The notes under the pieces: generated by a model
Seen by the model: the letters and a program-made list of their open reading frames with translations, nothing else
Databases searched by the model: none
What the model was told of the DNA's origin: nothing
Shown: one piece after another, positions 36,284 to 52,803 of the stretch
How positions within the stretch are numbered: the stretch's first letter is position 1
How the letters are laid out: the number at the start of each line of letters is the position of its first letter
Program-made: the position numbers and the translations under genes
Assembly (NCBI GenBank): GCA_046331385.1
Contig: JAXLQW010000001.1
Coordinates: 497,596 to 561,595, forward strand
Reading direction: 5' to 3'
Length of the DNA: 64,000 bases
Source of the DNA: Thermoanaerobaculia bacterium
Lineage (GTDB): Bacteria > Acidobacteriota > Thermoanaerobaculia > Multivoradales > JAGPDF01

Positions 36284-38047
36284 TCACAGGCCGGTGACTC
36301 GAATCACCTCTTCGTAGGTGGTGATGCCCTCGGCGAGCTTGCGCAGCGCCGACTGGCGCAGGGTCTTCATGCCGTTTTTGACCGCTTCGCGCTTGATCTC
36401 CGGCGCATCCGATCCCGACACGATGAGGGCCTTGACCCCGTCGTCGATCGCCAGGATCTCGAAGATGCCGGCGCGCCCGCGATAACCGGTCCCCCGGCAT
36501 TCGTGGCAGCCCTGGCCCTCCTTGACTTTGATCTTCTTGCCCGGCGGTACGGCGAGGCGCAGGGTGTTGGCCTCGTCCGAGCCGAGCGCCCGCTCGACGA
36601 CGCAGTGCGGGCAGATGCGGCGCACCAGGCGCTGCGCCATCGAGCCGATCAGGGTCGAGCTGATCAGGAAGCGCTCGACGCCGAGGTCCACCAGGCGGCT
36701 GATCGAGGTGGCGGCGTCGTTGGTGTGCAGGGTGGAGAAGACCAGGTGGCCGGTGAGCGCCGCCTGGATGGCGTACTGCGCCGTCTCGCCGTCGCGGATC
36801 TCGCCCACCATGATGACGTCCGGGTCTTGGCGCAGGATGTGGCGCAAGGCGCCGGCGAAGTCGATCCCCACCTTCGGCTGCACGGCAGTTTGGTTGAAGT
36901 CCTCGATCACCATCTCGATCGGATCCTCGATGGTGGTGATGTTCTGCTCGCGGTTGGCGATCGCCTTGAGCGCCGAATAGAGGGTGGTCGTCTTGCCGGA
37001 GCCCGTCGGTCCGGTGATCAGGATGATGCCGTGCGGGCGGCTGATGAACTCGTTGAAGACCATCTGCTCCTCGGGGTAGAAGCCGAGGGTCGCGAGATCC
37101 TGGGTGAGCACGTCGGGGTCGAAGATGCGCAGCACCGCCTTCTCGCCGAAAGCGACCGGCAAGGTCGAGACGCGCAGCTCGACCTCCTTGCCGGCGCGCA
37201 TCGTCTTGACGCGGCCGTCCTGCGGGCGGCGCTTCTCGGCGATGTCGAGACGGGACATCGTCTTGACGCGCGAGATCACCGCGTTGTGGACGATCTTCGG
37301 CATCGTCTGGATGTCGTGCAGCACGCCGTCGATGCGGAAGCGGATCAGGCTGAACTCGCGCTTGGGCTCGACGTGGATGTCCGAAGCGCGCGAATCGAAG
37401 GCGTGCTGGAGCATGAACTCGACCGCGTTGACGATGTGCTGATCGCTCGCCTCGATCTCGGCCTCGTTCTTCATCCGCACCAGCTGCTCGAGGTTGCCGA
37501 GGTCGACGCCGGCCGTGAGGTCGCGCTCGGCGCGCTTGACCGAATGGCGCAGACCGTAGAACTCGGTGATCGCGCGCAAGATCTCGGGCTCGGAGGCGAC
37601 CACCAACTGTAGGTCGCGTCCGGCGATGCGGCGGAACGAGTCGATGCCCTCGATGTCGAACGGATTGGCGCAGGCGACGCGCAGCTTGCCGTTGGCCATC
37701 GCGATCGGGATCATCCGGTGGCGGCGGGCGAAGGGACGGGAGATCTTCGACTCGATCAGATCGGCGTCGAGGGTCAGGGAATCGATGCGCACCACCTCGA
37801 GGCCGGCGTCGACGGCGAGGGCGCGCGCGATCGTCGTCTCTTCGATGATCGTCCCCGGTTCGCGCAGATTCGGCAGGCGCAGGCTGGCGATCAGGTCGTA
37901 GGCGACGGCCTTCTGTTCGTAGGTCGTGGCCGAGCGGACGCGGTTGGGGAGGTTGCGCTCCTCGCGCTTGATGTCGGCCGCCTGGGCGTCCGTGATCATG
38001 CGCTGGCGGACGAGGACGTCGGCGACGAATCCTGCGGCGAGCACCAT
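36284..38047 (-). CDS. GspE/PilB family secretion ATPase (type II secretion or type IV pilus assembly)
   Basis: 587 aa. Walker A motif GPTGSGKTTTLYSAL. N-terminal T2SS-E_N-like domain. Tetracysteine motif CPHC...CHEC. Aspartate box and His box are present. Confidence 0.85.
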   Translation of the reverse strand: MVLAAGFVADVLVRQRMITDAQAADIKREERNLPNRVRSATTYEQKAVAYDLIASLRLPNLREPGTIIEETTIARALAVDAGLEVVRIDSLTLDADLIESKISRPFARRHRMIPIAMANGKLRVACANPFDIEGIDSFRRIAGRDLQLVVASEPEILRAITEFYGLRHSVKRAERDLTAGVDLGNLEQLVRMKNEAEIEASDQHIVNAVEFMLQHAFDSRASDIHVEPKREFSLIRFRIDGVLHDIQTMPKIVHNAVISRVKTMSRLDIAEKRRPQDGRVKTMRAGKEVELRVSTLPVAFGEKAVLRIFDPDVLTQDLATLGFYPEEQMVFNEFISRPHGIILITGPTGSGKTTTLYSALKAIANREQNITTIEDPIEMVIEDFNQTAVQPKVGIDFAGALRHILRQDPDVIMVGEIRDGETAQYAIQAALTGHLVFSTLHTNDAATSISRLVDLGVERFLISSTLIGSMAQRLVRRICPHCVVERALGSDEANTLRLAVPPGKKIKVKEGQGCHECRGTGYRGRAGIFEILAIDDGVKALIVSGSDAPEIKREAVKNGMKTLRQSALRKLAEGITTYEEVIRVTGL

Positions 38048-39161: not shown

Positions 39162-42100
39162 ATGACCAGGCGGACGGGGAACCGGTTGACCGCGCTCGAT
39201 TTGGCCTTGCGCAGCCTCGCCTGGACCGCGTTCTCCGTCCTGATCGCCTCGCCCCTGCTCGGTTCGGGCGAATCGGTCCCGTTCAACGCAGTCCACGTCC
39301 CTCCCGGCGCGACGGTCACCATCACCTTCGACGTCGACGTCGACGATCCGCTCGGCGTCTGCGCCACCGCGATCTCGAATCAGGGCAGCGTCACTTCGAC
39401 CAACCACGCGAGCGTCCTCACCGACGACACGGCCGTGGGCGGCGGCGCCGACCCGACGGTCACGGGGCTCGACGCGGTCGACCTCGCGATCACCAAGACC
39501 GACGGCGTCGCGAGCGAGACCCCCGGCACCGCGATCACGTACACCATCACCGCCTCGAACGCCGGACCCTCGGGCGCGACCGGAGCTCTCGTCGCCGACA
39601 CCTTTCCGGCGACGGTCACCGGCGTGACCTGGACCTGCGTCGGCGCCGGCGGCGGCACCTGCGCGGCGAGCGGCTCGGGGAACCTCAACCAGTCGGTCAA
39701 CCTGCCGGCCGGCGGCTCGGTCACCTTCACCGTTTCGGGATCGATCTCGCCGAGCGCCACCGGCAGCCTGACCAACACCGCCACGGTGACCAAGCCGGCC
39801 GCGGTGCTCGAGTGCAACCTGGCGAACAACTCGGCGACCGACACCGACACCCTGAGCCCGCAGGCCGACGTCTCGATCACCAAGACCGACGGCGTCGCGA
39901 GCGTCGACGCCGGGAGCAACACGACTTATACGATCACCGCTTCGAACGCCGGCCCGAGCGACGCGCCGAACGCCGGGGTGGCCGACACGTTCCCGGCGGA
40001 GATCACCGGCGTCGCTTGGACCTGTGTCGGCGCGGGTGGCGGTACCTGCGCCGCGAGCGGCAGCGGCAACCTCAGCCAGAGCGTGAGCCTCCCGGCCGGC
40101 GGCTCGGTCACCTTCACCGCCGTCGCCTCGGTGTCGGGCTCCGCGACCGGATCGCTGGTCAACACCGCGACGGTCTCCTCGGGCGCCGGCGTGACCGACC
40201 CGGCCCCCGGCAACAACAGCGCCACCGACACCGACACGATCAACCCGGTGGCGGATCTCGCGATCTCGAAGAGCGACGGCACGACGACGGTGGTCCCCGG
40301 GCTCGCGACCGCGTACACGATCGTGGCCTCGAACGCCGGCCCGGCGACGGCGACCGGCGCGACGGTGGCGGACACCTTCCCGGCGGCCTGCGCGTCGGTG
40401 ACCTGGACCTGCGTCGGCGCGGGTGGCGGTACCTGCACGGCGAGCGGGTCGGGCAACATTTCCGACAGCGTCAATCTCCCCTCGGGCGGCAGCGCGACCT
40501 ACACCGCGGTCTGCACCACGGCCGCCAACGCGAGCGGCAGCCTCTCGAACACCGCCACCATCTCCGGCGGCGGCGTCAGCGACACGAACGCCGGCAACAA
40601 CTCGGCGACCGACACCGACACCTTCCTGCCGCTCGACTTCGGCGACGCCCCGGACGCCTCGATCGGCGCGCCCTGGGCCTATCCGACGAAGCTGGCGAAC
40701 GATGGCGCGCGCCACGGCGTCAACGGCCCGATCGCGCTGCGCTTCGGCGCCCAGATCGACACCGAGACCGACGGCCAGCCGACGGCGAACGCCGACGGCG
40801 ACGACGCGAACCCGGCGCTCGCGCCTGACGACGAGGACGGCATCACGCTGCCGACCTTCCTCGTCGCCTGCGAGAGCGCGAGCGTCACCGTCAACGCCTC
40901 GGCGATCGCCAAGCTCGATGCTTTCGTCGACTTCAACCGCGACGGCGACTTCGCCGACGCGGGCGAGAAGATCTTCAGCAGCCAGGCGCTGGTCGCGGGC
41001 GCGAACCCGCTCAACTTCACCGTTCCCTGCGGCGCCACCCCGACCGCGCTGACCTTCGCCCGCTTCCGCATCTCGACCGCCGGCGGCCTGTCGTACGACG
41101 GCGTCGCCGCCGACGGCGAGGTCGAGGACTACCCGGCCGCCGTTCGCGGTCTCGACTTCGGCGATGCCCCCGTCGTCTACGCGACGCTCTTCGCCGACAA
41201 CGGCGCCCGCCACGTCGTCACCGGTAGCGGCCCGGTGCTCGGCGCGGTCGCTCCGGACACCGAGGCGGACGGGCAGCCGACCGCCGGCGCCACCGGCGAC
41301 GACGCCAACGGGGTCGACGACGAGGACGGCGTCAGCTTCACCTCGCCGCTGCTGCGCGGGCAGAACGCCACGGTCACCGTTACCGCCTCGGCGGCCGGAG
41401 TGCTCAACGCCTGGCTCGACTTCAACGGCGACGGCAACTGGACCACCGCCGGCGATCAGATCTTCACCAACCAGGCGCTCGCCGCCGGGGCCAACCTACT
41501 CACCTTCGCGGTGCCGGCGACCGCGACGACCAACCTATCGACGGTGTCGCGTTTCCGGATCGCCACCGCGCCCGGCCTGTCGTTCAACGGCTTGGCGCAG
41601 AACGGCGAGGTCGAGGACCATGCGGTGGCGACGGCGGCCGAGGCCGACCTCTCGATCGCCAAGAGCGACGGTTCCGCGACCGAGGTTCCGGGCACGACGG
41701 TGACCTACACGATCGTCGCTGCGAACGCCGGGCCGGACGCCGCCACCGGCGTCACCGTCGCCGACACGTTCCCGGGGATCCTCTCCGGCTGCACCTGGAC
41801 GAGCATCGCCGCGGGCGGCGCCACCGGCAACGCCGCTGCGGGGAGCGGAAATATCTCCAACGGCGGCATCAACCTGCCGAGCGGCGCCTCGGTCACCTAC
41901 ACCGTGACCTGCACGATCGCCGCGAGCGCCACCGGGACTCTGACGAACACCGCCACGAGCTCGGTACCAGTCGGTCTCAACGACCCGGTCCCGGGCAACA
42001 ACAGCGCCACCGACGCCGACACGCTGACCCCGCAGACCGATCTCGCGGTCACCAAGACCGACGGCTCGGCGACGGAGGTTCCGGGCACCTCGGTGAGCTA

Positions 42101-44159
42101 CACCATCGTCGCTTCGAATGCCGGCCCGTCCGACGCCGTCGCGGCTTCGGTCGCCGATTCCTTCCCGGCGACGATCACCGGCGTCGCCTGGACCTGCGTC
42201 GGCGCCGGGGGCGGGACCTGCCCGGCGAGCGGCAGCGGCAACATCTTCGCCAGCGTGAACTTGCCGGTGGGCGGTTCGGCGACCTTCACCGCCACCGGCA
42301 CGATCTCGGCCGCGGCGACCGGGAGCCTCGCGAACACCGCCACCGTCGCCGCGGGCGCCGGGGCGACCGATCCGACGCCCGGCAACAACAGCGCCACCGA
42401 CACCGACACCCTGACGCCGCAGGTCGACCTCGCGATCAGCAAGAGCGACGGCTCGGCGACGGAGGTTCCGGGGACGCCGGTCACCTACTCGATCGCGGTC
42501 GGCAATGCCGGCCCCTCGAACGCCGTTGCCGCGGTGGTCGCCGACACCTTCCCGGCGGCGATCTCCGGGGTCGCCTGGACCTGCGCCGGCGCCGGCGGTG
42601 GCACTTGCCCGGCCGCGGGCTCCGGCAACCTCAACACCGCGGTCAACGTACCGGTCGGCGGCACGGTGACCTTCACCGCCACCGGCACGATCGCCTCCTC
42701 GGCCACGGGAACCCTGTCGAACACCGCGACGGTCACCGCCGCCGGCGGCACGACCGACACCAACGCGGGCAACAACAGCGCGACCGACACCGACACGCTG
42801 ACGCCGCAGGCGGACCTGCAGATCACCAAGGACGACAGCGCCGACCCGCCGCCGGCGGGGGAGAATCTGGTCTACACCCTCACGGTGCACAACTTCGGTC
42901 CGTCCGACGCCGCCGGCGTCGCGGTGAGCGATCCGCTGCCCGCCGCCGTGACCTACGTCTCCGATACCTGCGGCGGCACCAACACGCCGCCGTGGAGCTG
43001 GACGATCGGCGCCCTGGCGAGCGGCGCGACGGTGTCGTGCGACATCACGGTGTCGATCAACCCGGCGCCGCCGATCTCGATCTCCAACACCGCCTCGGTC
43101 ACCGCGACGACGCCGGACCTGGTCGCGGGGAACAACTCGGATACCGAGACCACGCAGCTCGACGCCATCCCGCCGACGGTCGACAACGTCGATTCGCAGG
43201 CCGGCACCGGCGACGGCACCCTCGCCGACTGCGAGACCGCCACCGCGCCGATCCACCACCTGCTCCTCGCCTTCAGCGAGGCGATGGCGAATCCGCCGGG
43301 CGACGGGGGAGCGAACGACGTCACCAACCCGGCCAACTACCTGCTGGTCAGCGCGGGGGCCGACTTCGACTTCTCGACCACGGCCTGCGGCGGCGCAGCG
43401 GGCGACGACCTCGCCATCCCGGTCGTCGGGGTGGCGTACAACGGCGGGACGGACACCGCGAGCCTCGACCTCGGCGGGGCGCTCGCCCCGGCGCAGTACC
43501 GACTCTTCGCTTGCGACACGCTGACCGATCTCGCGGGCAACCCGCTCGACGGCGACCTCGACACCACGGCGGGGGGAGATTTCCTCCGCCGCTTCCGCGC
43601 CGACTCCGACGACCTGTTCGCCAACGCGCACTTCGACTGCAGCCTGGCGGGTTGGACGGCGAGCGCGCCGGCCCCGGGCGAGGTCACCTGGACGGGAGCC
43701 GAGGACGCCGACGGCGCCGACGACTCGGGCGCCGTGCGCGTCACCAACCTCGCCCCCGGCGTCGACACGAGCTTCGCGCTCGCCCAGTGCTACGACCTGC
43801 CGGCGGCGGTGCCCTACCAGGTGCGGGCACGGCTGCGGCTCGACGCCGCGCCAGGGGTGCTGGTCGGCCTGACGCGCGCCTGCACCTTCTACAATGGCCC
43901 GGCCTGCGCCGGCGGATCGACGACCCAGTCGGACACCGTTCTGCTCGGCAGCACCGGCGGGAGCTGGATTCCGCTGGTCAAGACGGTCACGCCACCGGTC
44001 TCGGCGCTCTCGGCACTGTGCACCTTCCGTTGGGACACGCCGGTCGCAGCGGGTTTCGATTCCTTCCTCGACGCCGCCTTCTTCGGCGCGACGGGGCAGC
44101 TGTTCTCGGACGGCTTCGAGACCGGCGACACTTCACGTTGGTCGGCGACCGTGCCTTGA
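39162..44159 (+). CDS. Giant secreted adhesin-like protein with ~7 DUF11 repeats and GEVED-type motifs, ending in the shared C-terminal tag LFSDGFETGDTSRWSATVP
   Basis: The true start is probably the ATG at 39162 (MTRRTGNRLTALDLALRSLAWTAFSVLIASPLLGSG), which has a ggagagg RBS. Upstream, the ORF is antisense to gspE and EamA. Repeats follow the pattern L[AS]I[TS]K[TS]DG...TYTI.ASNAGPS.A....ADTFPA..TGV.WTC. Interspersed DFGDAPD...NDGARH...GEVED[YH] segments are present. Confidence 0.8.
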   Translation: MTRRTGNRLTALDLALRSLAWTAFSVLIASPLLGSGESVPFNAVHVPPGATVTITFDVDVDDPLGVCATAISNQGSVTSTNHASVLTDDTAVGGGADPTVTGLDAVDLAITKTDGVASETPGTAITYTITASNAGPSGATGALVADTFPATVTGVTWTCVGAGGGTCAASGSGNLNQSVNLPAGGSVTFTVSGSISPSATGSLTNTATVTKPAAVLECNLANNSATDTDTLSPQADVSITKTDGVASVDAGSNTTYTITASNAGPSDAPNAGVADTFPAEITGVAWTCVGAGGGTCAASGSGNLSQSVSLPAGGSVTFTAVASVSGSATGSLVNTATVSSGAGVTDPAPGNNSATDTDTINPVADLAISKSDGTTTVVPGLATAYTIVASNAGPATATGATVADTFPAACASVTWTCVGAGGGTCTASGSGNISDSVNLPSGGSATYTAVCTTAANASGSLSNTATISGGGVSDTNAGNNSATDTDTFLPLDFGDAPDASIGAPWAYPTKLANDGARHGVNGPIALRFGAQIDTETDGQPTANADGDDANPALAPDDEDGITLPTFLVACESASVTVNASAIAKLDAFVDFNRDGDFADAGEKIFSSQALVAGANPLNFTVPCGATPTALTFARFRISTAGGLSYDGVAADGEVEDYPAAVRGLDFGDAPVVYATLFADNGARHVVTGSGPVLGAVAPDTEADGQPTAGATGDDANGVDDEDGVSFTSPLLRGQNATVTVTASAAGVLNAWLDFNGDGNWTTAGDQIFTNQALAAGANLLTFAVPATATTNLSTVSRFRIATAPGLSFNGLAQNGEVEDHAVATAAEADLSIAKSDGSATEVPGTTVTYTIVAANAGPDAATGVTVADTFPGILSGCTWTSIAAGGATGNAAAGSGNISNGGINLPSGASVTYTVTCTIAASATGTLTNTATSSVPVGLNDPVPGNNSATDADTLTPQTDLAVTKTDGSATEVPGTSVSYTIVASNAGPSDAVAASVADSFPATITGVAWTCVGAGGGTCPASGSGNIFASVNLPVGGSATFTATGTISAAATGSLANTATVAAGAGATDPTPGNNSATDTDTLTPQVDLAISKSDGSATEVPGTPVTYSIAVGNAGPSNAVAAVVADTFPAAISGVAWTCAGAGGGTCPAAGSGNLNTAVNVPVGGTVTFTATGTIASSATGTLSNTATVTAAGGTTDTNAGNNSATDTDTLTPQADLQITKDDSADPPPAGENLVYTLTVHNFGPSDAAGVAVSDPLPAAVTYVSDTCGGTNTPPWSWTIGALASGATVSCDITVSINPAPPISISNTASVTATTPDLVAGNNSDTETTQLDAIPPTVDNVDSQAGTGDGTLADCETATAPIHHLLLAFSEAMANPPGDGGANDVTNPANYLLVSAGADFDFSTTACGGAAGDDLAIPVVGVAYNGGTDTASLDLGGALAPAQYRLFACDTLTDLAGNPLDGDLDTTAGGDFLRRFRADSDDLFANAHFDCSLAGWTASAPAPGEVTWTGAEDADGADDSGAVRVTNLAPGVDTSFALAQCYDLPAAVPYQVRARLRLDAAPGVLVGLTRACTFYNGPACAGGSTTQSDTVLLGSTGGSWIPLVKTVTPPVSALSALCTFRWDTPVAAGFDSFLDAAFFGATGQLFSDGFETGDTSRWSATVP

Positions 44160-44208
44160 GGCCCCGGACATGTCGACGACGCTTGCAGGCAAGCACGAGG
44201 GACGCGGT

Positions 44209-45102
44209 ATGCGGGGAGGCGAGTTGAACGAATCGACCGGTCGGGAGGCGAGGTGGGTGACGGCGAGGCGGCACCGCCGAATGCTGGGTGTTTCGGCCCT
44301 GGCGGCGCTGTGGGCGACCGGCGCCGTAGCGCAGGCCGACTCGGCGCCGGTGGTGCGCTTCCGCGCCGAGCAGCGCGCCGTGGCGACGGTTCCGCCGCTG
44401 CCGCCGACCTCGACGTTCCCGGTGCAACTGGTCCTCGACGACGACAGCTTCGAGGGCACACTCGGCGTGGCGAGCGGCCAGAACGCCAAGCAGTTCCTCT
44501 TCTTCGAGCGCTTCGGGCCGGTGCCCGGCTTCACCCTGCAGGAAGTCTGGATTCTCTTCCCGGGCGACGCCCCGGTCGGCGGCGCGATCGAGATCGTGGT
44601 CTTCGAGGACAGCGACGGCGATCCGTCGAACGGCGCAACGTTGCGCGCGGCTTTCGCGACCACGGTGTCGGCCAACGACGGCAACACCTTTTCGGTCTAT
44701 CCGTTGCCGGCGCCGCTCGCCTTCGATTCCGGTCGCGAGGTGCTGATCGGCGCCGTGCCGCGCTTCATCCAGAGCGGCGTGACGCCGTTCCTCTTCCCGG
44801 CGGCGATCGACGGCACCGCGAGCCAGGGGCGCTCCTGGCTCGCGGTCTGGCTCGGCGACCCGCCCGATCCGCCGCTGCTGCCGGCGGACCAGATCACCGC
44901 GCCGCTCGACGACTTCCAACCCGGCAACTGGATGATTCGCGGCTTCGGCACCGGCGTGAGCCCGCTCGAAGTTCCGGCGCTCGGACCGGCCGGGCTCGCC
45001 GCGCTCGCGGCGCTGCTCGCGGCCGGCGGACTCGCTCTGCTACGACGTCGGGACGGCGCGCGGATCGCGATGGGGAAGCACGACGGAGGAGGTCTCGAGT
45101 GA
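44209..45102 (+). CDS. Secreted hypothetical protein with an IPTL-CTERM-like C-terminus (VPALGPAGLAALAALLAAGGLALLRRRDGA...)
   Basis: The start is ambiguous: ATG 44170, 44209 or 44281 are all in frame, and 44209 has a gaggga RBS. Signal-like segment MLGVSALAALWATGAVAQA. A C-terminal TM helix plus RRR is followed by an unusual 15-aa tail. The stop overlaps the downstream GTG (GTGA). Confidence 0.5.
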   Translation: MRGGELNESTGREARWVTARRHRRMLGVSALAALWATGAVAQADSAPVVRFRAEQRAVATVPPLPPTSTFPVQLVLDDDSFEGTLGVASGQNAKQFLFFERFGPVPGFTLQEVWILFPGDAPVGGAIEIVVFEDSDGDPSNGATLRAAFATTVSANDGNTFSVYPLPAPLAFDSGREVLIGAVPRFIQSGVTPFLFPAAIDGTASQGRSWLAVWLGDPPDPPLLPADQITAPLDDFQPGNWMIRGFGTGVSPLEVPALGPAGLAALAALLAAGGLALLRRRDGARIAMGKHDGGGLE

Positions 45103-48100
45103 TCAGCCCGCGTTTGCCGAAGCGGTTCCGGAGGTGGTTCTCGCGCGCGGCGGTCGGGCTCCTCGCCACGCTCGTCTGGGGCCAGGCGCCGGCTCGGGCC
45201 CAGGTGATCGTCGACAGCTTCACCACCGTCCAGTCGACTCTCAGCGCACCGCCCGACGCGAGCTCGACCGCCACCGGCGGCGCCGACATCGTCGGCACCA
45301 AGCGCGGCATCGTGCAGCACGAAGTCGCGGGCGCCGGGCCGTCGACGGTCGCGGTCGCCGCCGGCCTGTTGACCCTGACGGTACCCAACACGACCCCCGA
45401 TTCGCGCGCCGAAGCGCGGCTCTCCTGGGACGGCGACAACAGCCCGGCGGTGCTCAATCCGACCGGCCTCGGAGCCGTCAACCTGACCGCCGGCAACTCC
45501 GGCGGATTTCGCATCCGCGTCGCTTCGGCGGGCGCCGGAGCCGAGCTCGAATTCGCCGTCTACTCGACCGCCGCCAACTTCTCGCGCGCCGCCCGCCTGC
45601 TGCCGGCGATCGCCTCGTCGACCGACGTCTTCCTGTCGTTTTCGGAGTTCCGCACGGCCGGCGGCACGGGGGCCAACTTCGCCAGCGTCGGCGCCATCGA
45701 GCTCACCGTGCGCGGCAAGGAGATCGCCGTCGTCCTCGACGAGATCGTCACCAGCGCGCCGATCCTGGCGGCGACCAAGGTGGACGCGCAGACGGTCGAC
45801 GTCGACGGCGACACGCGGGTCGATCCCGGCGACCGGGTGCGCTACACGGTAACCATCACCAACACCGGAAACGACGCGCTGGCGGTCGACCTGACGGACG
45901 CGGTCGACGCCAACACCACGCTGGTCGCGGGCTCGGTGCACTCGACGCCGGTGGCGCGCAACGACCAGTACGGCTGGTTTGGGAACGTGACCTTCGCCGC
46001 CGACGGGAGCGCCGGCCGGCCCGGCCTGCTCGCCAACGACGAGGACGGCGACGGCGACACGCTCACCGTGACCTCGGTCTCGCCGACCAGCTCCCAGGGC
46101 GGCACGGTCACCCTCGACGATGCCGCGACCGGCAAGTTCACCTACGCTCCGCCGGCGGGCTTCGCCGGCGTCGATTCGTTCGGCTACACGCTGCAGGACG
46201 ACGACGGCAACAGCAAGTCGGCGACCGCCTACGTCCAGCTCAAGGGAATCGTCTGGTTCGTCGACAATGCCTGCTCGGTCGGCTGCGGTCAGGGGACCTT
46301 CTCCTCGCCGTTCACCACCCTGCCGCAGGCCGAGACCGCCTCGGGCGCCAACGACATCGTTTACGTCCGTACGGGCTCGGGGGCCTACGACACCGGTGCG
46401 GCGAACGGCTTTTCCATGGACGCCGATGAGCAGCTGCTGGGCGAAGGCGTCGCCCTGGTGCTCGACGGCACGACGATCGTGCCGGTCGGCGCGCCGCCGC
46501 TGCTCACCAACGAGGTGGCGACGGTGGGTCGGGGCGTCACCCTGGCCGCCAGCGGCACCGACACCCTCCGCGGCCTGACGATCGGCAACACCGCCGGCGC
46601 GAAGATCTTCGGCAACACCTTCGGCACCCTGGCGACCGACACCCTCACCCTGAACGGCACGGGCCAGGCGCTCGACCTGACCAACGGGGTGCTGGCGACG
46701 ACGCTCGTCGGTCTCGCGTCGTCGACCAGCGCCACGACCGGGATCTCGCTCGCGACAGTCTCGGGTTCACTGACGGTGACCGGCTCGACGGGAATCACCA
46801 ATCCCGCCGGTACCGGTATCAGCATCGCGACTTCGACCGCCGCGCTGAGCTTCGCGTCGACGAGCATCGACAAGAGCGCGAGCGCCGGAACCGGGTTGTC
46901 GATCACCGGCAGCAGCGGCACGACCGGCTTCTCGAACCTGGCGGTCACGACCAGCGCCGGTACCGGCGTTCTCGTCTCCGGCAGCCCGCTCTCCGTGGGC
47001 GGCTCGGCGAGCACGATCGCCGCCACCGGCGGCCCGGCCCTCGACCTCACCACCGTGAACCTCGGCGCCGGCGCGACCTTCGCCACTGCGAGCTCGACCG
47101 GCAGCGCCGGCAAGGGCATGAACCTCGACACCCTGACCGGCGCCCTGACCATGAACGGCGGCTCGATCAGCACGCCAACCGGCACCGCGTTCGACCTCAA
47201 CGCCGGCTCCGCCAACGTGACCTACGCCGGCTCGGTCAGCAACACGGCGAACGCGCTCCTGGTCGAGATCACCGGCCGCAGCGGCGGCACGGTGGCGCTC
47301 TCGGGCGCGCTCTCGAGCACCGGCTCGGGCAACGGCATCAGCGTGGCCAACAACACCGGCGGCACGATCAACTTCAGCAACGCCTCGAAGACGCTGACCA
47401 CCGGCGCGGATCCGGCGGTGACGCTCGCCAGCAACACCGGCGCGACGATCAACTTCAGCGGCGGCGGGCTGGCGATCACCACCACCTCGGGCGCCGGCTT
47501 CACCGCCACCGGCGGAGCGACGGCGATCACGGTCCAGGGCACCGCCAACACGATCAGCTCGACGACCGGCACGGCGCTCAACGTCGCGAATTCGACGATC
47601 GGCGCGAGCGGCTTGACCTTCCAGAGCGTCTCGGCGAACGGCGCTTCGCGCGGCATCGTGCTGAACACGACCGGTGCCTCCGGCGGGCTGACCGTGACGG
47701 GCAACGGCGGCACGTGCACCAGCGCGGATACTTCCGGCTGTTCCGGCGGGACGATTCAGGCGTCGACGGGCGCGGATGACTCGAGCCTCACGCCGGCCGG
47801 GACCGGGATCGTGCTCAACAGCACGGCGAGCGTCTCGCTCACGCGTATGTTCATCCACGACCACAGCAACTACGGAATTCGCGGCACCTCGGTGGCCGGG
47901 TTCACGCTCGATCAGAGCGTACTCGGTGGCACCAACGGCGGCCCGCTCCCGGCCAGCGCCGGTTCGCCTTTCCACGACGGCTCCATCAAGTTCGACAACC
48001 TGACCGGCTCGGCGACCATCTCGAATTCGGCGATCAGCGGCGGTTTCTCGAACAACGTGCGCGTCGACAACACCACGGGCACCCTCAACCGCATCACCTT

Positions 48101-49064
48101 TTCGGGGGATACGATCGGCGCCAATAGCACCAGCGACGGTGAAGACGGTATCCTGTTGGAGACAGAGGGCAGCGGCGGCGTGATCTTGGCAACGGTACAG
48201 AACTGCGCGTTCACATCGGCGAGAGGCGACCTGTTCAATTTCGTCAGCAACTCAACCAGCGCCACCGCAGATGATCTCGTGTTCACCGGCAACACACTCA
48301 CCAACAATCATCCGGCGATCGCCACGGGCGGCGGCGGCACGACGATCAGCAGCAACGGAGGCAAGACGTTCACCTTCAGCATGTCGGGCAACTCCTTCCG
48401 AGATGCGGTGGGCATCGGCGTGCTGGTGGTGAAATCGACCGGCTCCAGCACGCTCTCCGGAACGTTCGCCAACAATTCCATCGGCGTCGCCGCGGTCGCC
48501 AATTCCGGATCTCTCGAGGGCTCCGCGATCAAAGTGCAAAACGCCGGACTGGGCGCGGTGACGATGGCGATCACGAACAATCAGATCCGGCAGTACAACA
48601 ACTTCGGAATCGAGCTCCTGACCGGGGGCGGCGCCTCACCCCTGAGCGGCGCCCTCAACGCCACGATTACCGGGAACTCGATCACCAATCCGGGCACCAA
48701 CCCCGCCACCGCATCGATCGCGAAGAACGGGCTCCACCTGAACGGCGGCACCGTCCCAGGGGACACCTATCAGATTTGTCTCGACGCCGGCGGCGCGGGC
48801 GCGCTCCAGAACTCGCTGTCGACATCGGGGGCGCCGAGTGACGTCCCGGCGGGCGGCGAGGACATTCGGCTGCGGCAACGCCAAGCGACCACGGTTCAGC
48901 TGCGTGGCTACGGCGGGGCGAACAACGACAACACGGCGGTGCAGAACTATCTGATCGCGCGCAACTCCGGCGACGGCGCGCCGTCGGCGATCGCCTCGAA
49001 CACCGTTCCCACCGGGGGCGGATACGTGAATACCCCAGGAGGAGCCGCATGTCCCCTGCCGTAG
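45099..49064 (+). CDS. Giant secreted parallel beta-helix repeat protein with an N-terminal DUF11-like domain and a VCBS/cadherin-like domain
   Basis: GTG start at 45099 with a strong ggaggagg RBS. Signal peptide (M)ISPRLPKRFRRWFSRAAVGLLATLVWGQAPARAQ. VCBS-like segment NDEDGDGDTLTVTSVSPTSSQGGTVTLDDAATGKFTYAPPAGFAGVDSFGYTLQDDDGNS. Dozens of Gly/Thr/Ser-rich beta-helix rungs (NNQIRQYNNFGIELL, NSAISGGFSNNVRVDN). The ORF's N-terminal extension before 45099 is an artefact. Confidence 0.75.
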   Translation: MISPRLPKRFRRWFSRAAVGLLATLVWGQAPARAQVIVDSFTTVQSTLSAPPDASSTATGGADIVGTKRGIVQHEVAGAGPSTVAVAAGLLTLTVPNTTPDSRAEARLSWDGDNSPAVLNPTGLGAVNLTAGNSGGFRIRVASAGAGAELEFAVYSTAANFSRAARLLPAIASSTDVFLSFSEFRTAGGTGANFASVGAIELTVRGKEIAVVLDEIVTSAPILAATKVDAQTVDVDGDTRVDPGDRVRYTVTITNTGNDALAVDLTDAVDANTTLVAGSVHSTPVARNDQYGWFGNVTFAADGSAGRPGLLANDEDGDGDTLTVTSVSPTSSQGGTVTLDDAATGKFTYAPPAGFAGVDSFGYTLQDDDGNSKSATAYVQLKGIVWFVDNACSVGCGQGTFSSPFTTLPQAETASGANDIVYVRTGSGAYDTGAANGFSMDADEQLLGEGVALVLDGTTIVPVGAPPLLTNEVATVGRGVTLAASGTDTLRGLTIGNTAGAKIFGNTFGTLATDTLTLNGTGQALDLTNGVLATTLVGLASSTSATTGISLATVSGSLTVTGSTGITNPAGTGISIATSTAALSFASTSIDKSASAGTGLSITGSSGTTGFSNLAVTTSAGTGVLVSGSPLSVGGSASTIAATGGPALDLTTVNLGAGATFATASSTGSAGKGMNLDTLTGALTMNGGSISTPTGTAFDLNAGSANVTYAGSVSNTANALLVEITGRSGGTVALSGALSSTGSGNGISVANNTGGTINFSNASKTLTTGADPAVTLASNTGATINFSGGGLAITTTSGAGFTATGGATAITVQGTANTISSTTGTALNVANSTIGASGLTFQSVSANGASRGIVLNTTGASGGLTVTGNGGTCTSADTSGCSGGTIQASTGADDSSLTPAGTGIVLNSTASVSLTRMFIHDHSNYGIRGTSVAGFTLDQSVLGGTNGGPLPASAGSPFHDGSIKFDNLTGSATISNSAISGGFSNNVRVDNTTGTLNRITFSGDTIGANSTSDGEDGILLETEGSGGVILATVQNCAFTSARGDLFNFVSNSTSATADDLVFTGNTLTNNHPAIATGGGGTTISSNGGKTFTFSMSGNSFRDAVGIGVLVVKSTGSSTLSGTFANNSIGVAAVANSGSLEGSAIKVQNAGLGAVTMAITNNQIRQYNNFGIELLTGGGASPLSGALNATITGNSITNPGTNPATASIAKNGLHLNGGTVPGDTYQICLDAGGAGALQNSLSTSGAPSDVPAGGEDIRLRQRQATTVQLRGYGGANNDNTAVQNYLIARNSGDGAPSAIASNTVPTGGGYVNTPGGAACPLP

Positions 49065-49097
49065 TGCGGCGTAGACTAGCAGCGGAAGGGAGAGCCG

Positions 49098-49598
49098 ATG
49101 GCCGAACCATTCCTGAGTGAGATTCGACTCATGAGCTTCGGCTTCGCGCCGAAGGGCTGGGCGTTGTGCAATGGCCAGCTCCTGCCGATCAATCAGAACC
49201 AGGGCCTTTTCTCTCTCCTCGGGACGACTTTCGGAGGGGACGGAAGAGTCAACTTCGCGCTGCCCAACCTCCAGGGTCGAGTGCCGATTCACGTCGGGTC
49301 CGGGCACACTCTCGGGGAGCGCGGCGGGGAGCAAGCTCATACGCTGTCGATTTCCGAGCTGCCTACCCATACCCATGCGGTCGCCGTCTCCTCGACGGCG
49401 ACCGGCGGTAACGTGAATCCGAGCGGGCGGTTCCTGGGCGGCGGGAACAACGCCTATCACGCGCCAGCGAGCCTGACGACCATGAATCCGGCGAGCGTGG
49501 CGAATGTCGGCGGGAGCCAGGCACATCTCAACATGCAGCCGTTCCTGGCGCTCAATTTCTCCATTGCCCTCCAGGGGATCTTCCCTTCTCCCAATTAG
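49098..49598 (+). CDS. Phage tail collar domain protein (T4 gp36-like; MdpB-type), paralog 1 of 3
   Basis: N-terminus MAEPFLSEIRLMSFGFAPKGWALCNGQLLPINQNQGLFSLLGTTFGGDG..NFALPNLQGR matches the tail-collar domain signature. Confidence 0.8.
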   Translation: MAEPFLSEIRLMSFGFAPKGWALCNGQLLPINQNQGLFSLLGTTFGGDGRVNFALPNLQGRVPIHVGSGHTLGERGGEQAHTLSISELPTHTHAVAVSSTATGGNVNPSGRFLGGGNNAYHAPASLTTMNPASVANVGGSQAHLNMQPFLALNFSIALQGIFPSPN

Positions 49599-49607
49599 GA
49601 GAGAACG

Positions 49608-50111
49608 ATGGCCCAGCCCTACGTCGGGGAAATCCGCATGTTCGCCGGGAACTTCGCTCCCGCCGGATGGATGTTCTGCGAAGGCCAGCTGCTACCGATT
49701 TCCGAGAACGAGACGCTCTTTCAGCTGATCGGAACGACCTATGGCGGCGATGGAGAGAGCACTTTCGCGCTGCCTGACCTGCGCGGCCGGGTACCGATTC
49801 ACTTCGGGAACGGATTCATCCTGGCCGAAACCGGCGGAGTCGAACAGATCACTCTCACGGTGCAGCAGATTGCGGCGCATTCGCACTCGCTCCTGGCCGC
49901 GGGCACGACCGGAGATCAGGTGAGTCCGGCCAACAACCTGCCTGCGAACTCGTTCAATGTCACGCCTTACATCAATGACGTACCGAACGGCAACATGAAC
50001 GCTGCTGCGATCACGGCGGTCGGGGGCAGCCAGCCACACGACAATTTCCAGCCGTACCTCTGCGTCGACTTCATCATCTCGTTGTTCGGCATCTTTCCTT
50101 CGCCGACCTGA
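49608..50111 (+). CDS. Phage tail collar domain protein, paralog 2 of 3
   Basis: N-terminus MAQPYVGEIRMFAGNFAPAGWMFCEGQLLPISENETLFQLIGTTYGGDGESTFALPDLRGR. It begins 10 nt after paralog 1. Confidence 0.8.
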   Translation: MAQPYVGEIRMFAGNFAPAGWMFCEGQLLPISENETLFQLIGTTYGGDGESTFALPDLRGRVPIHFGNGFILAETGGVEQITLTVQQIAAHSHSLLAAGTTGDQVSPANNLPANSFNVTPYINDVPNGNMNAAAITAVGGSQPHDNFQPYLCVDFIISLFGIFPSPT

Positions 50112-50120
50112 GAGGGCGCC

Positions 50121-50642
50121 ATGGCCGATCCCTTCGTCGCCGAGATCCGCATCTTCCCGTTCAACTTCGCGCCCCGAGGCTGGGCGTGGTGCGACGGCCA
50201 GTTGATGCCGCTCTCCCAGAACACCGCTCTGTTCTCCCTGCTTGGAACGACCTACGGTGGGGACGGAAAGAGCACCTTCGGATTGCCCGATCTCCAGGGG
50301 CGGGCGCCGATGCACCCCGGTCAGGGCCCCGGCCTGTCGTTGCACGATCTCGGCGAGATTTCCGGCAGCGAGACGATCACCCTGCTCGAGAGCGAGATTC
50401 CAACCCACTCCCACCAGATGCGAGCCGACGTGGTGGATCTCGCCGACACGAACGTCGCGAGCCCCAACGCGAGCTTCGCTCTGTCGGCGGGTGGAACGTT
50501 GTACCAGGCGGCGTCGAACGCCACGGCTTCCGACCAGGCCCTCGCCCCCGCCGGCGGCGACCAGCCGCACAACAACATGCAGCCGTACCTGACGTTCTAC
50601 TTCAACATCGCGCTGCAGGGAGTCTTCCCGCCGCGGACCTGA
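50121..50642 (+). CDS. Phage tail collar domain protein, paralog 3 of 3
   Basis: N-terminus MADPFVAEIRIFPFNFAPRGWAWCDGQLMPLSQNTALFSLLGTTYGGDGKSTFGLPDLQGR. Confidence 0.8.
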   Translation: MADPFVAEIRIFPFNFAPRGWAWCDGQLMPLSQNTALFSLLGTTYGGDGKSTFGLPDLQGRAPMHPGQGPGLSLHDLGEISGSETITLLESEIPTHSHQMRADVVDLADTNVASPNASFALSAGGTLYQAASNATASDQALAPAGGDQPHNNMQPYLTFYFNIALQGVFPPRT

Positions 50643-50657
50643 GGAGGGCAACCGGTC

Positions 50658-51395
50658 ATGACGAAATCCGACTCCGGACCAACCGCGGCGCTCTCCGGGC
50701 TCGCCGGCTTCGAGCTCGACCGCCGTTCGCTGATTCTGGCGACCGGAGCGGGCGCGGCGTTGCTCTCTCTCGAGCGCACCGCCGAGGCCGCGCTGCCGGT
50801 GATCTATCCGATGTCCCTCGGCTTCGTCGAGCCGCTCGACGGCGACTCGTTGAAGACCATGCCGTGGAACACCAATCCCGAGGGCACCGCCGTCGAGCCG
50901 GCGACCAAGCTCATCTCGGGCGACCAGAACCTGGCGCTCTCGCCGGTCACGGTGCGTATCGTCGGCCTCTACCCGAGCCTGCCGTGGCCGCAGAAGAACC
51001 GGCTCAACTCGATCGACCTCGACGCCTGCTTCGAACCCGAGGACCCGCAACTGCCGAACCAGATCCCCTTCGCCGCCTGGGGATACCGCCGCCTGCCGGC
51101 GCGCAACTTGTCGCCGCCGATCCACTTCCGCATGGAGATGGGGGTCACCGACGGCTTGGCATTGAAGCTGCGGGTGCAGGACAAGTCGCTGCGCTGGCGC
51201 CAGTACGAGACCCGCTTCACCGTCGATTGGACCGCGGGCATGCCGCGGCTGATGCGCGGCATCTACCTGCTCGGTCTCGACCCCGGCACCTGGGACGACG
51301 GCGGCATGCTGCCGCCGGCGGGCTCGCCGCCGGACTACTCCCGGCGGTCGGTGATCCTCACCGTGGATCCGGTGCCGCTGATGCCGCCGGCGTGA
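50658..51395 (+). CDS. Hypothetical protein with a Tat-like signal, co-operonic with the tail-collar triplet
   Basis: N-terminus ...FELDRRSLILATGAGAALLSLERTAEAA has a twin-arginine-like n-region and an h-region. No recognisable domain. The stop overlaps the next GTG (GTGA). Confidence 0.5.
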   Translation: MTKSDSGPTAALSGLAGFELDRRSLILATGAGAALLSLERTAEAALPVIYPMSLGFVEPLDGDSLKTMPWNTNPEGTAVEPATKLISGDQNLALSPVTVRIVGLYPSLPWPQKNRLNSIDLDACFEPEDPQLPNQIPFAAWGYRRLPARNLSPPIHFRMEMGVTDGLALKLRVQDKSLRWRQYETRFTVDWTAGMPRLMRGIYLLGLDPGTWDDGGMLPPAGSPPDYSRRSVILTVDPVPLMPPA

Positions 51396-51889
51396 ACTCC
51401 GGCCCCCCGCGACCGACGCTGCGCCGCGAGGAGCCGGCCGATCGGCCGTTCGTGGCGCGGGTCTATGCCGCGACCCGCGACGAGGAGCTCTCGCAGGTCG
51501 ACTGGCCGCCGGGAGAGCGCGATCGCTTCGTCAGCCAGCAGTTCGAGGCGCAGCGGGCCTACTACCTCGAGCACTATCCGGACGCGGAGTTCTCGATCGT
51601 CGAGCTCGGCGACGAACCGGTGGGGCGCCTCTACGTCGAGCGCCGGCCGACCGAGATCCGCCTGATGGACATCTCGATTCTCCCCGCGGCGCGCGGCCGT
51701 GGCACCGGCGGAACCCTCGTGGCGCAGCTGCTCGAGGAGTCCCGACGCAGCGGCAAGCCGCTCACCATCCACGTCGAGCGCTTCAACCGCGCGCTGTCGC
51801 TCTACCAGCGCTTGGGGTTCGCCGTGAAGGAGGATCGCGGCGTCTACCTGTTCCTCGAATGGGACCCGGCGCGGGAGGCGCGTGGATGA
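51392..51889 (+). CDS. GNAT family N-acetyltransferase
   Basis: GTG start at 51392 overlaps the upstream stop. The GNAT acetyl-CoA motif is present (ILPAARGRGTGGTLVAQLLEESRR...YQRLGF). Confidence 0.65.
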   Translation: MNSGPPRPTLRREEPADRPFVARVYAATRDEELSQVDWPPGERDRFVSQQFEAQRAYYLEHYPDAEFSIVELGDEPVGRLYVERRPTEIRLMDISILPAARGRGTGGTLVAQLLEESRRSGKPLTIHVERFNRALSLYQRLGFAVKEDRGVYLFLEWDPAREARG

Positions 51890-52188
51890 GTCTCGACGTC
51901 CTGACGGTCGACGATTTCGCGCCGCACGTCGGGGAGGCGATCGATCTCGTGGTCGACGAGCGCCGGGTCGCGGCGGTCCTCGCCTCGGCGCTCCCGGTGG
52001 GCGAGGCGCCGCCGCCCGGATCGGCCCGCCGCTGGACCTTCTCGGTGGTCTTCCGCACCGCCGCCGACGTCCGCCTGCCGCAACGGATCTACGGCGTCGA
52101 GCACCCGCGCCTCGGGCGCCTCGACCTCTTCTTGGTTCCGATCCAGCCCGACGCCGCGGGCAACCTCTACGAAGCGGTCTTCAATTGA
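51886..52188 (+). CDS. Small hypothetical protein (100 aa), translationally coupled to the GNAT gene
   Basis: ATG at 51886 overlaps the GNAT stop (ATGA). Sequence MSLDVLTVDDFAPHVGEAIDLVVDERRVAAV... Confidence 0.45.
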   Translation: MSLDVLTVDDFAPHVGEAIDLVVDERRVAAVLASALPVGEAPPPGSARRWTFSVVFRTAADVRLPQRIYGVEHPRLGRLDLFLVPIQPDAAGNLYEAVFN

Positions 52189-52215: not shown

Positions 52216-52803
52216 CTAGGCAGAGCGACGGCGACGGAGGATGAGCAGGCTCGCGCCGAGCAGGACGAGCAGGAAGAGCGCCAGGCCGATCTGCGACAGA
52301 GTCGGGATCGCTTGGATGACGCGATGGGCGCGGATCGCACCGCCGCCACCGTTGAAAGGATCGTCGACCACTTCGATCTGCACGGTGTGCTGGCCGGAAG
52401 CGAGCTGGAACGTCGCGTGCGAGAAGGTCGGATCGGCGAAGCACCGGTCGAGGTCGTCCTGGAATCGATCGCAGCCCGCCTCGGGCGGAACCGGTGGCGT
52501 GGTGCCAATGACCTGACCGTCGACCCGCACCCGGAAGGAATCGCCGGAGCAGAAGCAGTCGGTAACGTCGATCCGATTCGGTCCGGTGGCGAAGACCGGA
52601 TCGGCGAAGATCACCGCGCCGCTCGGATTCGAGCCCCAAGCGAAGCAATACCACTGGCCGTCGGCGGCCAAATTCGGCGACTCGACGCATCCGCTCTCGC
52701 CGCGTTCGCCGCCACGGTTGACGGGGCTCTGCGCGAGGGCCGCGGCCGCGACGCTCAGCGCCACGCCACAGATCCGCAAGGTGTCGCGAAACCGGGCTTT
52801 CAT
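52216..52803 (-). CDS. Cys-rich secreted protein with an IPTL-CTERM sorting signal
   Basis: Signal peptide MKARFRDTLRICGVALSVAAAALAQ. C-terminus ...AIPTLSQIGLALFLLVLLGASLLILRRRRSA. Confidence 0.7.
   Translation of the reverse strand: MKARFRDTLRICGVALSVAAAALAQSPVNRGGERGESGCVESPNLAADGQWYCFAWGSNPSGAVIFADPVFATGPNRIDVTDCFCSGDSFRVRVDGQVIGTTPPVPPEAGCDRFQDDLDRCFADPTFSHATFQLASGQHTVQIEVVDDPFNGGGGAIRAHRVIQAIPTLSQIGLALFLLVLLGASLLILRRRRSA

Follow-up and report, generated by a model that had tools for sequence, protein, structure and literature searches.

A cassette of three tail-collar paralogs beside a giant surface-type protein in Thermoanaerobaculia and other bacteria

We analyzed a stretch of 64,000 nucleotides (nt) from a Thermoanaerobaculia bacterium (contig JAXLQW010000001.1, positions 497,596 to 561,595; hereafter the window), in which three consecutive genes encode short proteins with the Collar domain of phage tail fibers. 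Comparison with related genomes identifies this locus as a representative of a chromosomal, non-phage cassette that is widespread and in which the Collar trio is accompanied by three small genes and usually by the gene of a giant surface-type protein. The comparison also shows that the variable heads of the Collar proteins and the beta-helix module of the giant protein co-vary and are swapped together, as a single unit of specificity, also between phyla. As to function, we lean toward a heterotrimeric knob resembling the tip of a tail fiber, which would work with the giant protein as an exchangeable module for ligand recognition.

The Collar cassette in the window and in other genomes

The Collar paralogs A (C1, 166 amino acids (aa)), B (C2, 167 aa), and C (C3, 173 aa) are encoded on the + strand at positions 49098-49598, 49608-50111, and 50121-50642, respectively. 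A first-pass annotation of this DNA had read here three tail-collar proteins of about 170 aa, and all three indeed score above the gathering score of Pfam family PF07484 (24 bits), with 90.6 bits and E 5.9e-26 for C1, 103.1 bits and E 7.5e-30 for C2, and 96.2 bits and E 1.1e-27 for C3. The domain begins at residue 7-8 of the proteins. The label "gp36-like" given at that stage fits less well than a likeness to T4 gp12, gp37, and gp10: Gp10_C matches the C-terminal half of C1 and C3 weakly (E 5e-5 for C3), the sequence matches of paralog B in the PDB are T4 gp12 and a long tail fiber, and the PHROG matches are tail and tail-fiber families. The Collar proteins match nothing in NCBIfam or PADLOC. 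The spacers between the Collar genes are 9 nt long, not 10 nt as first reported, and each contains a Shine-Dalgarno-like sequence. The whole trio (49098-50642) is in one reading frame with identical 9-nt spacers, and only two stop codons break its translation.

Three further genes follow on the + strand, completing the six that the first-pass annotation had placed here: P4 (50658-51395, 245 aa), which has a twin-arginine translocation (Tat) signal and a beta-sandwich body and falls in no described family; a GNAT acetyltransferase of family PF00583 (51392-51889, 165 aa from a GTG start); and a small DUF6916 protein of family PF21880 without signal peptide (51886-52188, 100 aa). The described overlaps of stop and start codons are found between P4 and the GNAT gene (GTGA, 51392-51395) and between the latter and the DUF6916 gene (ATGA, 51886-51889), whereas C3 and P4 are 15 nt apart. 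Upstream, the gene of the giant protein (45099-49064, + strand, 1321 aa) ends 33 bp before C1 and is coupled to the preceding open reading frame by a GTGA overlap (45099-45102), both as previously noted. The giant protein combines a Sec-like signal, a Big_9/cadherin-like domain, and a conserved module of about 900 aa.

Related loci were collected by a scan with the Collar alignment in one genome per species. The scan gave at least 595 confirmed hits, and the counts given here refer to the 80 best loci, which come from more than ten phyla and in which GNAT, DUF6916, and P4 genes were counted by local hidden Markov model searches. A synteny survey of these loci showed that the trio, the GNAT gene, and a DUF6916 gene recur together in 67 of 80; among the 56 loci with 3.5 kb or more on both flanks, 50 have the full set. 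Taken singly, GNAT and DUF6916 are each present in 69 of 80. Of the Tat-signal proteins, P4 itself is present in six loci, and P4 or a DUF6916 paralog with a Tat signal in at least 28.

The carriers include Chromatiaceae, Luteolibacter, Burkholderiales, Chloroflexota, Pyrinomonadaceae, Thermoanaerobaculia, and Mesorhizobium, as well as Flavobacterium phragmitis, Nocardioides currus, Chiayiivirga flava, and Dyadobacter linearis. In loci with a P4 about 50% identical to that of the window and with other flanks, a giant Big_9/cadherin gene, three Collar genes, P4, GNAT, and DUF6916 follow each other in the same order. Distant DUF6916 proteins (46-48% identity) lead to the same set in Conexibacter arvalis and in one ENA and one JGI contig, each with a GNAT gene, three Collar genes, either one or two genes for DUF6916 proteins, and genes for giant Ig/cadherin proteins. 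Cultured strains also carry the cassette on RefSeq megaplasmids, for example Aminobacter aminovorans, Ruegeria sp. TM1040, and Paenibacillus amylolyticus, under the product name "tail fiber protein". Other neighbors of the related loci are heterogeneous chromosomal genes.

Some distant cassettes additionally contain sulfotransferases and an Asp/Asn beta-hydroxylase (L011, 7043-7855 and 11232-12999; L013, 2127-3973 and 7134-7988), which hints at protein or glycan modification. In Chloroflexota and Actinomycetota, a gene for a periplasmic binding protein of family Peripla_BP_6 often abuts the trio (L046, 8261-9478; L051, 1782-2927; also L055, L065, L092, and L093); this family accounts for 7 of 116 neighboring reading frames.

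The surroundings are not those of a phage. No tail tube, sheath, baseplate, capsid, or integrase gene was found in the part of the window that was searched (about 23-64 kb), in agreement with the first-pass annotation, and no phage structural family is among the top 25 of the 123 neighbor families at the related loci that were inspected. In 2.9 million viral contigs, full-length relatives of the Collar proteins were found at six loci (41-57% identity). Complete sets there hold 3, 6, or 9 Collar genes, and the same GNAT is present in three of these loci and DUF6916 in one. Genuine phage matches cover only the first ~60 residues of the Collar proteins. Two or three A-B-C sets in tandem (6 or 9 genes) are observed in L024, L067, L068, L078, L094, and L096, which comprise genomes and "viral" contigs.

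The phylogenetic tree of the Collar proteins from seven loci consists of three clades, A, B, and C, each containing one member from every locus. By this evidence the paralogs are three ancient orthologous clades. Exactly three or six Collar genes, one per clade in each set, are present in 72 of 80 loci, and the remaining loci are cut by contig ends or frameshifts. The prevailing gene order is ABC (62 loci); BAC (4), BCA (2), ACB (1), and ABCABC (3) also occur. An HxH motif, invariant in the Collar alignment, is present in 247 of 248 Collar proteins (THTH in C1, HSH in C2 and C3), and further invariant positions include a His-x-Asn near the C-terminus. Paralog B is 59-83% identical between loci, even across phyla.

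The giant protein is a further frequent companion of the trio. About 60 of 80 loci have, on the same strand and no more than 1.3 kb from the cassette, a reading frame of 800 to more than 3100 aa, and in about 61 a neighboring giant gene is homologous to that of the window; 12-19 loci, many of them on short contigs, have no adjacent giant gene. In BLAST comparisons, the giants of about 55 loci align to residues 220-1321 of the window protein with 25-60% identity. This shared module is C-terminal if the giant gene is upstream of the Collar genes and near the N-terminus if it is downstream, and thus it is always encoded beside the Collar genes. Pfam detects one domain of the Big_9/Cadherin_5 type in the window giant (aa 276-381), and Big_9, Cadherin_5, Cadherin_4, and Cadherin repeats in other parts of the giants.

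The variable part of the giant is probably a right-handed beta-helix (aa 881-1321 in the window, 47739-49061, + strand). The last ~440 aa of the window protein contain PbH1-like repeats; the module itself has no Pfam match at E<=10 and no PDB match. Homologous segments match Beta_helix PF13229 in 7 of 26 cases (best E 3e-9), and their profile matches the structure of a GH110 beta-helix glycosidase (E 6e-7). Of the initial description of this protein as "beta-helix/VCBS", the first half finds support in these homologs rather than in the window copy, and the second does not, as no VCBS match was found.

The window giant terminates in ...TVPTGGGY..GAACPLP. Upstream-type giants share a conserved tail, ..NTVPTGGGY/F..GAACPxP (48990-49064 in the window; also L014, L016, L028, L032, L042, L087, and others), with a Cys 2-10 residues from the end; the window copy has a second Cys about 90 residues before. 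Downstream-type giants carry this motif internally.

The Collar domain, GNAT, DUF6916 as a named domain, giant Ig/cadherin/beta-helix proteins, and heterotrimeric Collar trios of virophages are known already. In the searched literature we found no description of a cellular cassette of this kind, of its breadth, or of the coupling between head type and beta-helix type, and these three appear to be new relative to that literature. It likewise contained no mention of DUF6916 and none joining a tail collar with a cadherin.

Joint variation of the Collar heads and the beta-helix module

The nearest relative of the window locus used for comparison, L003, allows one to delimit the exchanged region. 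The flanking DNA of the two loci is 92-98% identical, their housekeeping proteins are 89-99% identical, and P4, GNAT, and DUF6916 are 91-94% identical. The Collar proteins are 76-80% identical overall, and the differences are concentrated in the middle: identity is 80-100% (mostly 95-100%) in the first ~90 residues, 15-35% in the middle ~45, and 75-100% in the last ~25. The giant protein follows the same pattern, with 83-97% identity over the first 800 aa and 20-30% over the last ~470 aa. At the nucleotide level, the replaced tract spans about 3.1 kb (approximately 47650-50750) and includes the 3' end of the giant gene, the three Collar genes, and the first bases of P4. Within it, the heads and the giant 3' end are about 40% identical, compared with 66-89% for the conserved parts of the Collar genes.

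The same division of the Collar proteins is seen among 70 loci, where median identity is 77-84% for the N-terminal parts, 81% for the C-terminal parts, and 32-34% for the heads (approximately aa 95-140 in C1, 95-141 in C2, and 100-147 in C3). The heads of A, B, and C change type jointly. Thus, in 22 of the 56 locus pairs with A heads more than 50% identical, the B and C heads are also more than 50% identical, compared with ~0.03 pairs expected under independent assortment.

The heads also change type together with the giant. The heads most similar to those of the window are found in L016, L014, L015, L006, and L007 (64-69%), and L014-L016 also provide the best matches to the window beta-helix module (53-63%) among the loci with a giant in the comparison set. 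In L015 the giant gene is downstream, and the co-variation is kept across an intervening region of only 35% identity. The Spearman correlation between head and beta-helix similarity to the window is 0.56. When all 496 pairs among 32 loci are taken, it is 0.375, and controlling for the identity of the Collar N-terminal parts gives 0.36; none of 2000 permutations in a Mantel test reached the observed value. P4 (or the Tat-signal DUF6916 paralog), GNAT, and the small DUF6916 protein are conserved and do not vary with specificity. The genomic side of the original proposal, a free-standing trio outside any prophage and paired with the giant protein, is supported by the recurrence of the cassette in 67 of 80 loci, by the homology of the giants, and by this co-variation.

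Proposed function and its alternatives

In the model that we favor, paralogs A, B, and C would assemble 1:1:1 into a small knob like a tail-fiber tip. The conserved N- and C-terminal parts would form its collar, and the ~45-50 hypervariable residues in the middle of each chain would together build a composite distal head. The histidines of the HxH motif would staple the knob with metal ions, as they do in T4 gp12 and gp37, where they coordinate metal on the trimer axis. The knob and the beta-helix would contact each other or share one variable ligand, most likely a surface glycan, so that the knob and the giant together would constitute a polymorphic module of adhesion or recognition. P4, GNAT, and DUF6916 would serve maturation or export. 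A candidate step is N-terminal acetylation of the M-A, M-S, and M-G N-termini of the Collar proteins by GNAT, and a candidate export route in this lineage is the Tat pathway, with a pre-folded, signal-less trimer riding on P4.

The closest precedent is provided by the virophage DSLV2 of the Aquatic Virophage 1 lineage, in which three consecutive Collar proteins co-purify 1:1:1 as a complex of ~55 kDa, form 16-nm fibers, and bind Synechococcus cells (PMC12724248). As in the cassette, the three Collar genes of DSLV2 are co-oriented and encode proteins of ~170-180 aa, orthology follows position or clade, and a conserved collar is combined with a variable head (PMC12724248). Given the three orthologous clades and this 1:1:1 complex, a heterotrimer is the most economical reading. 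The DSLV2 heterotrimer was demonstrated biochemically (PMC12724248); for the cassette, a heterotrimer would rest on this analogy and on the sets of 3, 6, and 9 Collar genes. A further difference is that the cassette resides in cellular chromosomes and megaplasmids, next to a giant gene, GNAT, and DUF6916 rather than to capsid genes. The tips formed by T4 gp12, gp37, and gp10 share with the cassette the Collar domain, the HxH motif, and conserved ends enclosing a variable distal part. They are homotrimers on long shafts encoded among tail genes, whereas the cassette, which lies outside any phage context, encodes three different chains, all short and beginning at the collar itself.

Several observations weigh against this model. 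Assembly, metal binding, export, and ligand binding of the cassette proteins are what we infer from sequence and analogy. The Collar proteins, when checked for secretion signals, proved to have no signal peptide, and hence they may stay inside the cell. Tat hitchhiking was considered as a universal export route and rejected, since the alphaproteobacterial protein in the P4 slot, possibly propeller-like, carries no signal. No function can be read from the folds of DUF6916 or P4, as neither gave a significant Foldseek match. The all-pairs correlation of heads and beta-helix is moderate (0.36-0.38), and the co-variation could partly result from physical linkage, because one unbroken tract was swapped relative to L003. 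Finally, the percentages apply to one subfamily only, since the 80 loci are those most closely related to paralog B.

If the knob-and-giant model is true, it would assign a role to three uncharacterized families, the cellular Collar trios, DUF6916, and P4, and it would mean that a phage receptor-binding architecture has been reused in bacterial surface recognition. Genes for "tail fiber proteins" are present in thousands of bacterial genomes and are usually taken for leftovers of prophages; in the loci compared here, such genes make up a conserved cellular cassette. The model can be tested in cultured carriers, such as Ruegeria sp. TM1040, Aminobacter aminovorans, Chiayiivirga flava, Flavobacterium phragmitis, and Conexibacter arvalis. 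The cassette spans TM1040_RS01845-RS01875 in Ruegeria and AA2016_RS29755-29785 on pAA01 of A. aminovorans, and the C. flava carrier is DSM 24163. A bolder version, about which we are doubtful, is a pan-bacterial, horizontally exchangeable lock-and-key system, in which the exported knob docks on the matching beta-helix of the giant fiber or shares a glycan with it. It would amount to strain-specific recognition of partners, kin, or substrates by domesticated phage receptor-binding parts, and its dedicated maturation and export route, linking GNAT, DUF6916, and Tat, would be new.

Joint exchange of a fiber and a small neighbor gene has a parallel in phages, in which tail-fiber assembly proteins such as Tfa and the T2-type gp38 are matched to their fiber; in R-type pyocins and P2-like phages, the C-terminus of the fiber and its chaperone are exchanged jointly. 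By this analogy, the trimer could be a dedicated folding or capping factor for the beta-helix of the giant rather than an adhesin, and the co-variation would reflect a chaperone-client interface. The tight adjacency of the genes and the joint swapping of the beta-helix module and the heads agree with such a role. We nevertheless regard it as unlikely. Folding of the giant, which has a Sec-type signal, would take place outside the cytoplasm, whereas no signal is present on the Collar proteins, and these proteins are homologous to receptor-binding tips and not to known fiber chaperones. Unlike the specificity cassettes of tailocins and P2-like phages, the searched part of the window has no contractile-tail genes, and what is swapped with the small genes is a monomeric beta-helix carried by a giant repeat protein. 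In addition, the virophage trio was itself found to bind cells (PMC12724248).

A comparably low probability is attached to the possibility that the function of the trio has nothing to do with the giant. The trio could be an intracellular or released lectin-like protein of the RhiB/MrpB (COG4675) kind, and its adjacency to the giant and the co-variation by-products of linkage on a mobile island. Stand-alone cellular Collar proteins without known fiber context do exist: RhiB of Rhizobium (rhiABC) and MrpB of Microcystis, both of COG4675, "microcystin-dependent protein". The missing signal peptides, the single contiguous tract swapped relative to L003, and the loci without an adjacent giant also fit this explanation. 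On the other hand, the giants are homologous across phyla with the conserved module always at the trio-proximal end, the co-variation survives the downstream arrangement with its 35% identical intervening region, and the Mantel test controls for the relatedness of the Collar N-terminal parts. RhiB and MrpB are single Collar genes paired with RhiA and MrpA, with no trio, GNAT, DUF6916, or giant beta-helix partner reported. A RhiA/MrpA-like annotation was found on no cassette protein, although no sequence search with RhiA or MrpA was made. The Microcystis Collar protein has been discussed together with the extracellular glycoprotein MrpC.

The sharply variable C-terminal part of the giant, followed directly by co-varying small genes, also resembles systems of polymorphic antagonism or kin discrimination. 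By analogy with CdiA-CT and CdiI of contact-dependent inhibition, the variable end would be an effector or identity determinant and the trio its partner or protector. Replacement of alleles between close relatives and the sharing of types across phyla would be expected of such a system as well. We consider this quite improbable, as the variable part consists of beta-helix repeats with no recognizable toxin domain, the downstream genes are homologous paralogs with conserved ends, in contrast to the unrelated immunity genes of polymorphic toxins, the module is at the N-terminal end of a downstream giant in many loci, and PADLOC gives no match.

That the trio is an ordinary prophage or tailocin remnant, as the Collar domain, the PHROG "tail protein" matches, and the RefSeq product name might suggest, is hardly credible and is rejected on genomic context, given the absence of tail tube, sheath, baseplate, capsid, and integrase genes in the searched part of the window and of phage families among the top neighbors, the housekeeping flanks, the lack of the N-terminal shaft of phage fibers, the mere six full-length viral-contig relatives, several of them with the same GNAT or DUF6916, and the restriction of phage matches to the first ~60 residues.

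Accessory proteins and genomic surroundings

The Tat signal of P4 (DRRSLILATGAGAALLSL..AEA) is composed of a twin arginine, a hydrophobic stretch, and an AxA site, from which export is predicted; the twin arginine is at least 90% conserved in an alignment of 60 sequences. P4 has no match in Pfam, NCBIfam, PHROG, or PADLOC, and its homologs are rare: 9 clusters were found by a single-sequence search and 70 by a profile search, none with a Pfam domain. The structural model of P4 is a beta-sandwich (predicted local distance difference test (pLDDT) score 84), for which Foldseek found nothing in the PDB at E<=0.001. In many loci, the slot between Collar C and GNAT is filled by a DUF6916 paralog of 140-180 aa with a canonical Tat signal. 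Possibly P4 harbors a strongly diverged DUF6916-like domain; the hhalign comparison of the two gave E 0.055 at first and, with deeper profiles, a weak match with E 5e-4 and a probability of 31%.

In Aminobacter (L111, 13071-14555) and Ruegeria TM1040 (L112, 13126-14343), the same slot is occupied by a protein of 405-494 aa with W-rich repeats. This protein has no signal peptide and matches neither P4 nor DUF6916, and in Aminobacter the next gene belongs to the SapC family.

The GNAT protein scores 42.8 bits against PF00583 (E 7e-11; gathering score 20.7 bits). In NCBIfam it is closest to N-terminal acetyltransferases of the RimI type, below the cut-off, and no equivalog is reached. The N-termini of the Collar proteins, 86% of which are M-A, M-S, or M-G, are loosely compatible with N-terminal acetylation.

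The small DUF6916 protein scores 91.1 bits against PF21880 (E 5e-26; gathering score 27 bits) and matches nothing in NCBIfam or PADLOC. The family is large, with 9558 representatives at 50% identity retrieved by its profile at E<=1e-3 from 1.84 billion proteins. The model is a compact beta-barrel (pLDDT 95), and Foldseek found nothing at E<=0.001 in the PDB and BFVD. PADLOC gave no match for any of the eight proteins searched.

The gene preceding the giant (44202-45102, + strand) encodes a 300-aa protein with a signal-like N-terminus and an exosortase-type C-terminal tail (motif, transmembrane helix, and RRR) and has no match in Pfam or NCBIfam. Its slot is filled by a gene of 269-307 aa in L003, L006, and L007, and it is seen in close relatives only. 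Its product came out 27% identical to that of L003, but since nucleotide identity there is 85-95%, the low protein identity is an artifact of start or frame, and the gene is not variable. Directly upstream (~39300-44159) lies a second very large open reading frame with many DUF11-type repeats; the cassette thus closes a run of giant surface-type genes.

The more distant upstream flank encodes cytochrome oxidase subunits, a DDE transposase, glutamine synthetase, a DinB-family protein, an AlgX-like protein, an aminotransferase, a T2SSE-family ATPase, and an EamA transporter. The transposase (DDE_Tnp_1_4, E 1e-57; 25660-26946) is flanked by the cytochrome oxidase genes and the glutamine synthetase gene, and the G+C content of this region is lower (~65%). 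The T2SSE/MshEN-type secretion or pilus ATPase is encoded on the - strand (36284-38047), about 7 kb upstream of the giant genes. On the downstream side, synteny with L003 places genes for a PLP enzyme, chorismate synthase, a thioesterase, cytochrome c, and the His- and Asp-tRNA synthetases. The gene at 52216-52803 (- strand) encodes a protein of 195 aa with an IPTL-CTERM-like tail, and it diverges from its L003 counterpart (51-83% nucleotide and 68% amino acid identity) far more than its neighbors do.

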